From Erysipelotrichaceae bacterium (GTDB lineage: Bacteria; Bacillota_I; Bacilli_A; Erysipelotrichales; Erysipelotrichaceae): a DNA stretch of 32,000 nucleotides. A model generated the notes under the pieces. That model saw only the letters and a list, made by a program, of their open reading frames with translations. It did not search any database and was not told where the DNA came from. A program made the position numbers and the translations under genes. This document shows, in pieces, positions 15,147-27,062 of the stretch (its first letter is position 1; each line of letters begins with the position of its first letter). The stretch lies in the NCBI GenBank assembly GCA_963663995.1, contig OY760660.1, positions 1,050,001-1,082,000 of the forward strand, read 5' to 3'.

Positions 15147-15177
15147 ATCCTACTACTTAGAGTTAACTTTAAGTCAA
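15147..15177 (-). promoter_or_regulatory. MerR-type promoter G (class-2 dyad) for DUF3737-patB
   Basis: Minus strand: TTGACT-TAAAGTTAACTCTAAGTAG-TAGGAT, an exact 19-nt spacer. The 18-bp dyad CTTAAAGTTAACTCTAAG matches 16 of 18 positions. The -10 lies 26 nt from the ATG. Confidence 0.65.
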
Positions 15178-15218
15178 GGGATTTTCAACATTATTTCAAA
15201 ATCATCATTTATTTCATT

Positions 15219-15263
15219 AAAAATCCCATCAACGTCACTTTTATATGTGACATTGAAGGGATT
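15219..15263 (-). terminator. Strong intrinsic terminator after the NTF2-like/AKR unit
   Basis: Minus strand: AATCCCTTCAATGTCAC-ATATAAAA-GTGACGTTGATGGGATT (17 positions, 1 mismatch, 1 G-U) followed by TTTTT. Confidence 0.75.
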
Positions 15264-15297
15264 GTATTTACTGCAATTATTTTGAAAATCTAAGAGA

Positions 15298-16149
15298 TTA
15301 ATCAAATTCTCTAGTATAGCCAGTGAGTCTTTCAACCATAGCTGGATCTGCATGGTCAAAGAATGAACTAACGGGTTGATCAAGTTGAAGGATTGCATCC
15401 ATTTCTTCTTGACTGAGTTCAAAATCAAAGACTTCGAAGTTTTGTTGCATACGTTCTTTTTTAACTGATTTTGGAAGAACGGATATACCACGTTGAATTA
15501 AATAACGAAGTGTGACTTGTGCAGGAGATTTACCATATTTTTCACCTATAGAAACTAGCGTTTCATTTGTGAAAAGATTGTTCTTACCTTCAGCAAATGG
15601 TGCCCATGCTTGGATTTGTACACCATATTTCTTCATGATTTCATTCGCATCAACTTGTTGGTGGAATGGATGAGTTTCAACTTGGTTAACCATTGGAACA
15701 ACATCATTGAACTTAATCAAATCAATTAGACGATCTGAATAGAAATTACTTACCCCAATCGCTTTTAATTTACCTTCTTTATATAGTTCTTCCATCGCAC
15801 GATAAGTACCATAGTAATCACCAAATGGTTGGTGAATTAATAATAAATCTAGATATTCCATTTGTAGTCTTGCGAGCGAACCTTCGATGGATTTTTTAGC
15901 TTTTTCATAGCCCATTTCACTAATCCAGAGCTTAGTTGTGATAAAGAATTCTGAACGATCTAAACCACTTGCTTTAATCGCATTTCCAACTGCACGCTCA
16001 TTTCCATATGATTGAGCTGTATCGAATAAACGATAACCTACTTCAATTGCGTCTAAAACACAACGTTCTGTGTCTTCTTGTGGAATTTGGAAAACTCCAA
16101 ATCCTAGTAATGGCATTTTTATGCCATTATTTAATTTTGCATATTCCAT
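15298..16149 (-). CDS. Aldo/keto reductase (DkgA-like, ~283 aa subfamily)
   Basis: The AKR catalytic tetrad context is visible (FDTAQSY, ITTKLW, LLIHQP). AAGGAG SD. Confidence 0.85.
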
Positions 16150-16164
16150 ATTTTTTCTCCTTGT

Positions 16165-16524
16165 TTAATAAACAATTTTCGTGAATGATAGTGAAGCTAA
16201 TTTGTAACTATCTTCAGTTACAGTATAAACCTCTGTCACAACAAAAGGATTTGTCACTTCATTACCACCAACAATAGCGGTTAACTTCAACTTGTTTAAA
16301 ACAACAAAAATATTGTCCATTTGTTGAATGTTCTCTTCTTCAAAATCAATAGTTTGATAGGTAATTCGTCCTGTTTTAATGGTTTCCGCTTCCTGATTAC
16401 GATCAAGTGTTACACCCATGTGTACAAACAAGGCATTATCATGTGTCATTAACTTAAAAGCATCAACATCTCTGTCTTGAATTACTTTCCAAAGTGATCT
16501 TGAAAATTCATGTATTTTATTCAT
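16165..16524 (-). CDS. Small NTF2-like / SnoaL/DUF4440-like protein
   Basis: 119 aa, no TM segments. Size and pattern are compatible with an NTF2-fold protein, but the family assignment is weak. AGGAGG SD. Confidence 0.45.
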   Translation of the reverse strand: MNKIHEFSRSLWKVIQDRDVDAFKLMTHDNALFVHMGVTLDRNQEAETIKTGRITYQTIDFEEENIQQMDNIFVVLNKLKLTAIVGGNEVTNPFVVTEVYTVTEDSYKLASLSFTKIVY

Positions 16525-16544
16525 CTTATCCTCCTACTATTCTA

Positions 16545-16575
16545 ATTTTAGAACATTGTAGTAACTACAGGTCAA
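16545..16575 (-). promoter_or_regulatory. MerR-type promoter A (class-1 dyad) for NTF2-like + AKR
   Basis: Minus strand: TTGACC-TGTAGTTACTACAATGTTC-TAAAAT, an exact 19-nt spacer. Dyad TGTAGT-T-ACTACA. The -10 lies 20 nt from the ATG at 16524. Confidence 0.7.
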
Positions 16576-25398: not shown

Positions 25399-25429
25399 TT
25401 TTTTCTCTCTCTTTATTTATTTCTTAGTT

Positions 25430-25460
25430 AGTTTAATACTTGAAGTAAACTCCAAGTCAA
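25430..25460 (-). promoter_or_regulatory. MerR-type promoter E (class-2 dyad) for the Fe-ADH gene
   Basis: Minus strand: TTGACT-TGGAGTTTACTTCAAGTAT-TAAACT, an exact 19-nt spacer. Dyad CTTGGAGT-TT-ACTTCAAG with 7 of 8 arm positions complementary. Confidence 0.65.
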
Positions 25461-25476
25461 GAATATTTTATGAAAC

Positions 25477-26364
25477 TTACTTTTGAGTCTCCCAAAATTT
25501 AAATGCTTGTTTTATCCAACCTTCTGCTTTAATATCTAGTCCTAAACCAAAACCATGAGGAAGTCCATCATAGACATGTAACTCTGTTGGAATTCCCATT
25601 TTTTCTAGTTTATTTAAACGGTTTTGCATAACTCGCCAATCGGCTATCCAATCATTTGTGCCAATACAAGCATAGGTAGGCGCATCATATTGATTAACTT
25701 GAGAATGACCCGTATATTGCATAATCACGGCTGTTGCTTGAGGTATATCATCTCTTTGAGTAAGTTGATTTAAATATTGTTTATTCGCTAAAGTGGCTGC
25801 CATTCTTGCTCCAGCTGATCCACCCCATAATGAGTATGAGTTCTTTTTAACTTTTAATTCATCAGAATGATCATAAACAAATTTTATGGCTTGCGCTAAA
25901 TCATCATAGGCACTATTTGGACGATAAATTAAGGCGAATGCGTTATATCCATTCTTACTTGCTTCTAATGCATGTGGAAAACTATCATGCATCGCTCCTA
26001 CATACATCATCCCTCCACCCGCACTCATAATGGCAAACTTCTCATATTCATTGCCTCGAAAGAAGAATAAACCGGTATCCTTTTTGTTTGGATCACGTCT
26101 TATTTCTTCATCAGTATAGATTGAATAGAAAATTTGTTGATGATTTAAAGCTTCAGTTTTTAAATAATTCAGTATTTCAATGGTCGTTTTAACTTTTATA
26201 TTGTTGTACCAAATATATACATTTGACGTACTAATATCACTTAGTGTTGCGTATCTGCTAATCGATAAATCAATTGGAAACAACAAATGAGCGAATCCAT
26301 TGAACGCTGGATCGTTAAGTACATCTTCTACTATTGATTTTTCATTAAAATATTTTTCTGCCAT
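25477..26364 (-). CDS. Alpha/beta hydrolase (esterase/lipase-like)
   Basis: Nucleophile elbow GGSAG and a C-terminal GLPHGF His region. 295 aa. Confidence 0.75.
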   Translation of the reverse strand: MAEKYFNEKSIVEDVLNDPAFNGFAHLLFPIDLSISRYATLSDISTSNVYIWYNNIKVKTTIEILNYLKTEALNHQQIFYSIYTDEEIRRDPNKKDTGLFFFRGNEYEKFAIMSAGGGMMYVGAMHDSFPHALEASKNGYNAFALIYRPNSAYDDLAQAIKFVYDHSDELKVKKNSYSLWGGSAGARMAATLANKQYLNQLTQRDDIPQATAVIMQYTGHSQVNQYDAPTYACIGTNDWIADWRVMQNRLNKLEKMGIPTELHVYDGLPHGFGLGLDIKAEGWIKQAFKFWETQK

Positions 26365-26373
26365 TTTTGACCT

Positions 26374-27009
26374 TTAATAAAATGATGGTTTAGGAAAATC
26401 TGTGTTTGGTTCACTGACACCAAGACTCGTATTCTTAAATCTCTTAGGGTCATTGATGATATCTACTACTAATCTAGCCACTGCTTGACGTGTCACTTGT
26501 GCACCAATAAATGGCTCACCCTTTTGACTAATCATGTATTTTTCATTCCCATTTTGATTATATAACCAGGTTAAACGTAACAATGTATAATCTAAACCTG
26601 ATTCTTCAATTATTTGTGCTGAACGCTTATGACGATCTGTTCCTGGACCACCAACCATCATTTCATTCCATTTCCCAAATTCACCAATAACTTCATCATA
26701 TATACCTAGAATGGTTGCGGCAATAATCTTTTCTACACCAGATTCTTTAGCCGCATTAACTATATTCTCAGTTGCTAAGTTTGAATTGACATCGTTTAAA
26801 TAAATCAAATCAACTCCTTGCATCGCAGTTAGTAGTTTTTCTTTATCTTTGAAGTCACCATCTATAAGCTCAATGTGATGTCCTGTTTCAGTTAATCTGT
26901 TTTTAGCACTTCGAGCATAAAGAACTAAATCATGTTTGTCTTCTTGTATTAATTTTTTTGTGAGCATACGAGAAATTTGACCTGCTGCTCCTAAAATTAA
27001 AATTTTCAT
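26374..27009 (-). CDS. NAD(P)H-binding protein (NmrA-like / atypical SDR)
   Basis: MKILILGAAGQIS (GxxGxxG) at the N-terminus. The start is set at the ATG at 27009 (AAGGAG 8 nt upstream), because the track start at 27057 lies inside promoter F. Confidence 0.75.
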   Translation of the reverse strand: MKILILGAAGQISRMLTKKLIQEDKHDLVLYARSAKNRLTETGHHIELIDGDFKDKEKLLTAMQGVDLIYLNDVNSNLATENIVNAAKESGVEKIIAATILGIYDEVIGEFGKWNEMMVGGPGTDRHKRSAQIIEESGLDYTLLRLTWLYNQNGNEKYMISQKGEPFIGAQVTRQAVARLVVDIINDPKRFKNTSLGVSEPNTDFPKPSFY

Positions 27010-27031
27010 AGTGTGATCTCCTTGTGAATCT

Positions 27032-27062
27032 ATCTTAAGCCTTGGAGTTCGCTCCAAGTCAA
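27032..27062 (-). promoter_or_regulatory. MerR-type promoter F (class-2 dyad) for NmrA-like + hydrolase
   Basis: Minus strand: TTGACT-TGGAGCGAACTCCAAGGCT-TAAGAT, an exact 19-nt spacer. Dyad CTTGGAG-CGAA-CTCCAAG with perfect 7-bp arms. Confidence 0.7.

Follow-up and report, generated by a model that had tools for sequence, protein, structure and literature searches.

Promoters of MerR-family activators have a suboptimal spacer of 19-20 bp separating the -35 from the -10 element and a quasi-palindromic operator that lies in or overlaps the spacer. Promoters of this kind are found in a 32-kb stretch of DNA from an uncultured Erysipelotrichaceae bacterium (assembly GCA_963663995.1, contig OY760660.1, positions 1,050,001 to 1,082,000; the whole stretch of 32,000 nucleotides is referred to as the window, and all coordinates are positions in it). 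Six of them precede genes for the detoxification of aldehydes and quinones, and a seventh dyad adjoins merR, the gene of a 131-aa MerR-family regulator. The original prediction, made from the sequence, had described a single regulon island. The MerR-type promoters in front of detoxification genes stand, but the dyads are of two operator types that point to two regulators. On sequence comparison, it is likely that the window carries two interleaved regulons, each under a MerR protein of the NmlR/AdhR clade, with the type 1 regulator encoded locally and the type 2 regulator acting in trans.

The closest described systems are HiNmlR of Haemophilus influenzae (structures 5D8C, 5D90 and 5E01), together with NmlR of Neisseria and Streptococcus pneumoniae, and AdhR (YraB) of Bacillus subtilis. 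AdhR is an aldehyde- and electrophile-responsive MerR protein with an essential Cys52, which activates adhA-yraA and yraC (PMC4776306, PMC11672702). An absolutely conserved hinge cysteine (Cys52 in AdhR, Cys54 in HiNmlR) is the defining feature of the NmlR/AdhR clade (PMC4776306), and both AdhR Cys52 (PMC4776306) and HiNmlR Cys54 (PMC5001606) are required for the aldehyde response. In the crystal structure of HiNmlR with DNA, Arg20 reads positions 7'/8', and Tyr17 and Lys24 read the C5:G5' pair, mutation of which cuts the affinity 10- to 190-fold (PMC5001606). In NmlR-type regulons, the inverted repeat embeds or flanks the -35 element (PMC5001606).

The window MerR, like HiNmlR and the other NmlR proteins, is short and has no C-terminal ligand domain. 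Its C53 corresponds to the sensor Cys54 of HiNmlR, regulator and target are transcribed divergently from promoters that overlap, and the half-sites are of the form xACTCxAA(G); the HiNmlR targets are dehydrogenases for reactive aldehydes. The two proteins differ in that they share only about 34% identity and that Tyr17 and Lys24 of HiNmlR are Glu16 and Asn23 in the window MerR, whose operator has A instead of C at position 5 and a 1-nt instead of a 2-nt centre. Cys71 of HiNmlR is an alanine in the window MerR. The window targets are aldo-keto reductases (AKRs), an FMN reductase and a major facilitator superfamily (MFS) pump, whereas the HiNmlR targets are adhC-estD.

Promoter architecture

The window was scanned with the pattern TTGAC-N20-TANNNT, equivalent to TTGACN, 19 nt and TAnnnT. 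Seven matches were found, six of them on the minus strand. A comparison with shuffled sequence, which the original prediction had proposed, was made within the window; the mean of 100 shuffles was 2.29 matches, and none of them (0/100) reached seven. When an inverted repeat in the spacer was also demanded, six sites were found in the window, compared with a mean of 0.18 and a maximum of 2 in 300 first-order Markov simulations. The six promoters that had been predicted are confirmed on the minus strand, and the sequences quoted for them are correct (types 1 and 2 are defined in the following section):

27032-27062, minus strand: promoter F, type 2, TTGACT TGGAGCGAACTCCAAGGCT TAAGAT, in front of genes for an NmrA-like NAD(P)-binding protein (26374-27009) and an alpha/beta hydrolase (25477-26364)
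25430-25460, minus strand: promoter E, type 2, TTGACT TGGAGTTTACTTCAAGTAT TAAACT, in front of the gene for an iron-containing alcohol dehydrogenase (Fe-ADH; 24229-25398)
24128-24158, minus strand: promoter B, type 1, TTGACC TGTAGTAACTACAGCGCTT TATACT, in front of the gene for an MFS transporter (22954-24099)
19110-19140, minus strand: promoter D, type 1, TTGACA TGTAGTAAGTACATGGTTG TATAGT, in front of genes for two AKRs (18228-19079 and 17214-18215) and an FMN_red protein (16581-17198)
16545-16575, minus strand: promoter A, type 1, TTGACC TGTAGTTACTACAATGTTC TAAAAT, in front of genes for a DUF4440 protein (16165-16524) and an AKR (15298-16149)
15147-15177, minus strand: promoter G, A-rich variant of type 2, TTGACT TAAAGTTAACTCTAAGTAG TAGGAT, in front of genes for a DUF3737 protein (14278-15120) and a PatB C-S lyase (13115-14281)

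The spacer is exactly 19 nt in 6/6 window promoters and each spacer carries a dyad, in agreement with the MerR architecture proposed for them; the same spacing is seen in orthologous loci. The distances from the -10 element to the ATG are also as predicted (26 nt for G, 20 nt for A, 30 nt for D, 28 nt for B, 31 nt for E and 22 nt for F), with a purine-rich Shine-Dalgarno sequence in each case. Pfam and NCBIfam bear out the gene calls, giving three AKRs, FMN_red, Fe-ADH, NAD_binding_10/NmrA, an alpha/beta hydrolase, MFS, a PatB-family C-S lyase (TIGR04350, 400 bits, over the cut-off), DUF3737 and DUF4440.

The dyads (17 bp in type 1, 18 bp in type 2) start with base 5 of the -35 hexamer, overlapping only the last two bases of TTGACN, and their centre is at spacer position 7-7.5. 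The type 1 dyad occupies the first two thirds of the 19-bp spacer. A 19-bp spacer with a dyad that begins at the end of the -35 element is likewise found with classical MerR at mer (Tn501/Tn21), CueR, ZntR and SoxR, and these systems share a divergent regulator gene and a transcript start under the same operator. In the window as in these systems, activation is presumed to proceed by untwisting of the DNA (PMC5001606, PMC8113463). The window MerR differs from these classical proteins: it has no metal-binding loop or [2Fe-2S] motif, the half-site sequence is another one, and thiol modification is the presumed signal. The likeness to the SoxR box pointed out in the original prediction holds as a generic resemblance within the MerR family, with nothing specific to SoxR beyond that.

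Two operator classes

Full symmetry splits the dyads in the window into two classes. Type 1 is CTTGTAGT-N1-ACTACAAG, 17 bp in length, with the core class TGTAGTnACTACA, and is found at A, B, the copy next to merR and, with one mismatch, at D. Type 2 is CTTRRAGT-N2-ACTYYAAG, 18 bp in length, with the core class CTTGGAGTnnACTCCAAG; E and G match it exactly and F has one mismatch. The classes differ at half-site position 5 (A:T in type 1 and C:G in type 2) and by one bp in the separation of the half-sites. The merR gene and the operator beside it are located as follows:

22522-22917, plus strand: merR, encoding the 131-aa MerR-family regulator (Pfam MerR_1, E=2e-14), with cysteines C8, C22, C53 and C57
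22485-22497, unstranded: type 1 operator adjoining merR, TGTAGTTACTACA, located within the leader of merR and also within the spacer of a divergent promoter that has decayed

The seventh dyad, which had been placed at 22483-22499, is present, at 22485-22497.

Type 1 and the local MerR

At about 68 of 72 loci with a merR ortholog (loci are numbered with the prefix L), a dyad NGTAGTnACTACN is contained in a TTGACC-19-TAnnnT promoter that is divergent from merR and located 30-100 bp upstream of it; the conservation of the dyad in related loci, a check suggested with the original prediction, is thus found for type 1. The 72 loci span Erysipelotrichales, Lachnospiraceae, Oscillospiraceae, Clostridium perfringens, Megamonas and others. 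Elsewhere in these 20-kb loci the type 1 dyad is almost never seen, and it tracks merR orthologs across hundreds of species whatever the neighbouring genes. The first gene behind a type 1 site encodes an AKR in 34/56 cases and FMN_red in 9/56. The orthologous MFS genes in L001 and L006 are likewise behind a type 1 site, and promoter A is kept together with its operon in L001-L008.

The outer base of the core covaries with residue 19 of MerR. Lys19 occurs with GGTAGT..ACTACC in 34/34 loci and Arg19 with TGTAGT..ACTACA in 28/33, the 5' T being kept in 33/33. HiNmlR Arg20 aligns with residue 19 of the window MerR, so the position that is read in the structure is the position that covaries. Position 5, which separates type 1 (A) from type 2 (C), is the base read by HiNmlR Tyr17 and Lys24, at the sites of Glu16 and Asn23 in the window MerR; L061, the sole ortholog with Asp16, has the operator GGGAGTTACTCCC. 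From its co-location with merR and from the covariation of residue and base, type 1, represented by A, B, D and the copy adjoining merR, is the predicted cognate operator of the local MerR.

The same data bear on whether the dyads are MerR sites at all. AT-rich genomes yield many promoter-like matches and a LysR regulator is encoded within the cluster (20619-21497), so the dyads could have arisen by chance as palindromes in ordinary promoters or could serve another regulator, for instance this LysR. Against this stand the six dyad-bearing sites where about 0.18 are expected, the tracking of merR orthologs by the dyad across hundreds of species, and its covariation with a residue of the MerR recognition helix. 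Chance and LysR are effectively refuted by footprint, covariation and simulation, and we regard this explanation as extremely unlikely. LysR 20619-21497 was rejected as the dyad binder because the dyad tracks merR and not lysR, which is not a conserved neighbour of the dyad; in L001, merR stands between the LysR gene and the divergent AKR operon, with the LysR gene lying past MFS and MatE genes.

The local MerR subgroup

The best solved relative of the window MerR is HiNmlR (5D90, E=4e-18), with C53 aligned to Cys54, and several of its homologues carry the JGI name "aldehyde-responsive regulator". The placement of the 131-aa protein in the NmlR/AdhR (aldehyde/electrophile) clade of the MerR family is supported. 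NmlR (NF041849) is the best-matching NCBIfam model, but the score of 73 bits is far under the cut-off of 175 and marks the protein as a member of a separate subgroup rather than an NmlR equivalog. Only the MerR helix-turn-helix and coiled-coil regions are matched in the protein, and a metal-binding loop or ligand domain is absent.

The ortholog group is sharply delimited by the helix YETL[RK][YF]YCNEG (YETLRYYCNEG in the window) and occurs at no fewer than 431 loci in a collection with one genome per species. The closest orthologs, at 85-87% identity, are from uncultured Erysipelotrichaceae; the remainder are from Clostridia, Lachnospiraceae, Oscillospiraceae, C. perfringens and Megamonas. Up to five cysteines are conserved in the orthologs of L006-L085, namely C8, C22 (in the recognition helix), C53, C57 and C71, with C53 kept in 64/65 orthologs, C57 in 65/65 and C71 in 57/65. 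The coiled coil is followed by a conserved C-terminal tail, GK(I/T)xYxSNL (residues 118-127), which reads GKIKYTSNL in the window. A literature search found no study specific to this MerR subgroup or to a MerR-plus-AKR regulon of its kind. The four exact 13-mer type 1 operators had zero occurrences in the searchable literature, where the short type 2 half-sites gave irrelevant primer matches only. The local regulator thus belongs to a widespread, uncharacterised subgroup of the known NmlR/AdhR family and presumably works by the mechanism known for it.

The C53-x3-C57 pair, C22 in the recognition helix, C8, the usual C71 and the conserved tail could also be read as a mechanistically distinct redox or electrophile sensor, a multi-cysteine or metal/cluster switch that couples DNA-reading residues directly to the signal. 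We consider this unlikely; were it true, such a switch would govern an AKR and FMN-reductase module that is conserved in gut and environmental Bacillota. The multi-cysteine pattern of the subgroup is unlike the single-cysteine AdhR-type proteins that adjoin type 2 sites.

Type 2 and its associated regulators

A metagenome scan with TTGACTTRRAGTNNACTYYAAG, a pattern that is silent on the -10 element and that the promoter G sequence fits, retrieved at least 120 contigs; the counts in this paragraph refer to the matches listed. TAnnnT is found at exactly 19 nt in 103/121 type 2 sites. As this was not demanded by the pattern, type 2 is itself a widespread MerR-type promoter. About 30 sites have an open reading frame (ORF) for a MerR protein within 600 bp, usually directly downstream, an arrangement in which the type 2 site would drive the operon of the regulator itself; most have none. 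The first genes behind 65 non-redundant sites encode MerR (19), AKR (11), FMN_red (6), flavodoxin (3), SDR (3), CMD of the YraC family (3) and Fe-ADH (1). Homologues of the window Fe-ADH gene are behind type 2 sites in L099 (60% identity) and L173.

The MerR proteins associated with type 2 have the recognition helix [AST]DTLRYYER[IV]G and are 26-37% identical to the window MerR. They score 134-153 bits with the NCBIfam NmlR model, as against 73 for the window MerR, and their best solved relative is 3GP4 from Listeria. As judged by these neighbours, type 2 is an operator associated with canonical AdhR/NmlR-type regulators with the helix DTLRYYERIG. The operator of E, F and G shares with AdhR that it adjoins AdhR/NmlR-like proteins in metagenomes and that it drives the same kinds of genes (MerR itself, AKR, FMN reductase, CMD of the YraC family and Fe-ADH); the difference is the local MerR, which is of the other subgroup. 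That the genes downstream of the window promoters are of kinds controlled by such regulators elsewhere is supported. Type 2 may correspond to the B. subtilis AdhR box, an assumption that draws on the associated proteins and the AdhR sequence rather than on a direct comparison of operators.

Paralogs were found in other loci, and one of them is informative: L019 encodes a YYDKEG-type MerR with a type-2-like half-site. An identical type 2 promoter, TTGACT TAAAGTTAACTTTAAGTGG TATATT, recurs in L096, L104, L110, L112, L122, L164, L170 and L198, from human gut and other metagenomes. The L096 copy, the one that was sampled, is upstream of a gene for a 1-deoxy-D-xylulose-5-phosphate synthase/transketolase-like protein, an unexpected target for an AdhR-type regulator.

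Assignment of the regulons

With both classes described, the single regulon can be weighed. The local MerR might bind all seven dyads of both classes and so coordinate the 12-kb island: the half-sites are alike (ACTACAAG and ACTCCAAG), both classes have nearly the same position relative to the -35 element, the gene functions overlap, sites of the two classes are physically interleaved, and the window has a single MerR gene. In some 70 species, however, the operator next to this regulator invariably combines a 1-nt centre with A/T at position 5; a 2-nt centre and C/G are never seen. Type 2 sites in other genomes adjoin the different MerR subgroup described above, 26-37% identical, and this runs counter to the idea, implied in the original prediction, that the local MerR serves all dyads. 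The differing base is read in HiNmlR by residues that differ between the two subgroups, and mutation of that base pair in the HiNmlR operator has the 10- to 190-fold effect already mentioned. We therefore hold a single regulon to be improbable. The 131-aa MerR is not expected to bind all seven dyads, and its predicted sites are four of the seven.

Several points weigh against two regulons with these assignments. The mismatch of promoter D is in the right half-site, where ACTACA is changed to AGTACA at a contacted base, and site D may for this reason be weak. The covariation counts stem from related genomes and are not independent events. The orthologs were retrieved by peptide patterns that fix C8 and C22, and the conservation of these two cysteines is thus biased by the search. 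The clade of the window is without the second cysteine that matters in HiNmlR (position 71, Ala here), which is present in 57/65 orthologs. The -35 element of HiNmlR is embedded in the inverted repeat, with binding opposite sigma region 4, whereas the centre of the window dyad is in the spacer as with classical MerR; mechanistic details of HiNmlR are thus not transferable one to one. Lastly, neither hmmsearch with the subgroup profile nor the ORF list gave a second MerR or a DTLRYYER[IV]G-type regulator in the 32-kb window.

That last result leads to the most likely assignment of E, F and G, control by a trans-acting AdhR/NmlR-type regulator encoded outside the window. It could also be taken as a sign of orphan operators, in a genome that has no AdhR-type regulator and in which E, F and G give weak constitutive transcription, hampered by the 19-bp spacer, for example after transfer of the genes together with their promoters. 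The lack of a cognate regulator within 32 kb would fit, as would decay elsewhere in the locus (an AKR pseudogene) and the recent arrival of the neighbours, since the closest relatives lack orthologs of the Fe-ADH, NmrA-like and DUF3737 genes at their syntenic loci. Yet E, F and G keep TTGACT, the exact 19 nt, TAnnnT and a good dyad, a combination that would hardly be expected without selection. Regulators of the AdhR/NmlR type abound in Bacillota (PMC4776306), and they are often encoded away from some of their targets, most type 2 sites among the matches listed having no MerR within 600 bp. Orphan operators are accordingly a very improbable explanation, and two regulons, one of them controlled in trans, are preferred.

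The merR gene and its divergent partner

The region upstream of merR contains three further features:

22503-22473, minus strand: decayed divergent promoter, TTATAT-19-TACGTT
22442-22469, plus strand: predicted merR promoter, TTTACT-16-TATACT (consensus scan), the -10 element of which ends 15 nt upstream of the dyad
21584-22443, minus strand: AKR pseudogene, the former divergent partner of merR, with two in-frame stops (KC*PRE and NPFN*QIE)

A good -10 element on the merR strand that ends exactly 15 nt from the dyad is present in 51/62 orthologous loci, as it is in the window. The start of merR transcription is thereby placed immediately upstream of the operator, which covers the beginning of the transcript. 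The layout of overlapping divergent promoters is observed; from it we infer that merR is autoregulated through the operator over its transcript start. The merR -10 element in L006-L085 is TAyAAT, and a CTTG motif is often found about 17 nt further upstream. The -10 hexamers of target and merR in these loci are frequently palindromic, TACAAT-N3-5-ATTGTA. In one ortholog locus (L011:1740-1800), three tandem copies of AAGTTGAATTT are located between the operator and the merR start codon.

On the other strand, the -35 element of the seventh dyad is TTATAT and not TTGACN, while the merR promoter and the operator are intact; the same position in L001-L008 has TTGACT-TGTAGTTACTACAAGGTTG-TACAGT. The AKR at 21584-22443 is called a pseudogene because of its two in-frame stop codons. 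Its C-terminal fragment matches Pfam Aldo_ket_red, and it shows 70-75% nucleotide identity to the merR-adjacent AKRs of other species. An alternative genetic code was rejected, as the stops align with Gln or Val, not Trp, in two intact AKRs of the window; it is also ruled out by the other ORFs of the window, all of which read through under table 11.

Locus history and neighbouring genes

In the nearest relatives (L001-L004 and L006-L008), an intact AKR-AKR-DUF4440-AKR cluster is oriented divergently to merR, behind a perfect TTGACT-CTTGTAGTTACTACAAG promoter. Operon D of the window, including its promoter, is the ortholog of this merR-divergent operon, and the nucleotide alignment with L001 and L006-8 reaches the -35 element. 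The second AKR copy, next to the window merR, has decayed, with its two stops and the change of the -35 element from TTGACT to TTATAT, and LysR and MatE genes separate merR from operon D; LysR and the MatE pump lie between the AKR pseudogene and promoter D.

Exactly one type 1 site per 20-kb locus is found in about 60 of 80 species, compared with 2-5 in the nearest relatives and four in the window; the density is thus a feature of the clade. It looks higher in the window owing to the adjacency of three type 2 operons that are absent from the syntenic regions of the relatives, where no orthologs of the Fe-ADH, NmrA-like and DUF3737 genes were found. The "unusual concentration" of promoters in the original prediction is correct in comparison with most relatives, but the nearest ones already have 2-5 sites. 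In the close relatives L002 (4340-4370) and L003 (2497-2527), a Cupin_2 gene at a distance of a few kb from the type 1 cluster is driven by a type-2-like promoter, TTGACA TGAAGTCAACTCCAGGGTG TAGAAT, so juxtaposed regulons are not unique to the window.

Terminator-like hairpins follow two of the operons:

15229-15256: terminator-like hairpin of operon A
13077-13099: terminator-like hairpin of operon G

No terminator hairpin was detected between operons F, E and B or between D and A, and read-through is possible there. LysR-MatE modules are repeated in the window: one consists of LysR 20619-21497 and MatE 19160-20542, the other of a partial LysR (31425-31955) and MatE 29963-31366. An additional, third MatE gene (28095-29435) comes after a Flavodoxin_4 gene (29432-29950). 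Nucleotide identity of about 67-70% is found between one MatE stretch of L001 and both window copies, which suggests duplication. The minus-strand genes at 3876-9440, assigned by eye from their translations, presumably form a polyamine biosynthesis-like cluster unrelated to the promoters, with apparent genes for an Orn/Lys/Arg decarboxylase, spermidine synthase, agmatinase, a saccharopine-dehydrogenase-like protein and a carboxynorspermidine-decarboxylase-like protein.

Proposed mechanism

By analogy with the family, an unmodified dimer of the local MerR would be bound to CTTGTAGT-N-ACTACAAG and hold the promoters with their 19-bp spacers off. An electrophile or oxidant would modify conserved cysteines, the hinge C53 and probably with it C57 of the C53-x3-C57 pair. 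The modified protein would then reorient its DNA-binding domains, untwist and shorten the spacer and so allow open complex formation at the mis-spaced -35 and -10 elements, an activation mechanism inferred by homology with MerR, CueR, BmrR and HiNmlR. The predicted targets of the local MerR are D (AKR-AKR-FMN reductase), A (DUF4440-AKR), B (MFS exporter) and its own promoter; the original divergent target of the merR-proximal operator would have been the AKR that is now a pseudogene with a decayed -35 element. E (Fe-ADH), F (NmrA-like reductase and hydrolase) and G (DUF3737 and PatB C-S lyase) would be under the AdhR/NmlR-type regulator in trans. The signals are likely to be reactive aldehydes, quinones or other thiol-reactive electrophiles, as suggested by the inducers to which AdhR and NmlR proteins respond and by the AKR, FMN-reductase and Fe-ADH target genes.

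Biological significance

No new kind of regulation is revealed, as the family, the architecture and the class of targets are all known already, and the operator assignment and the recognition correspondences are useful to specialists rather than surprising. What appeared to be a single detoxification island would be two regulons on two paralogous sensors, and this alters which experiments are informative. The agreement of residue 19 with the outer base, and of residues 16 and 23 with position 5, with the HiNmlR contacts amounts to a small, testable recognition code. Such a code (R19/K19, E16/D16) could be used to retarget MerR activators and obtain orthogonal biosensors for reactive aldehydes or quinones. 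A MerR subgroup that is widespread in Bacillota, including many gut bacteria, is now assigned an operator, a core regulon of AKR and FMN reductase genes, and a layout suited to autoregulation.

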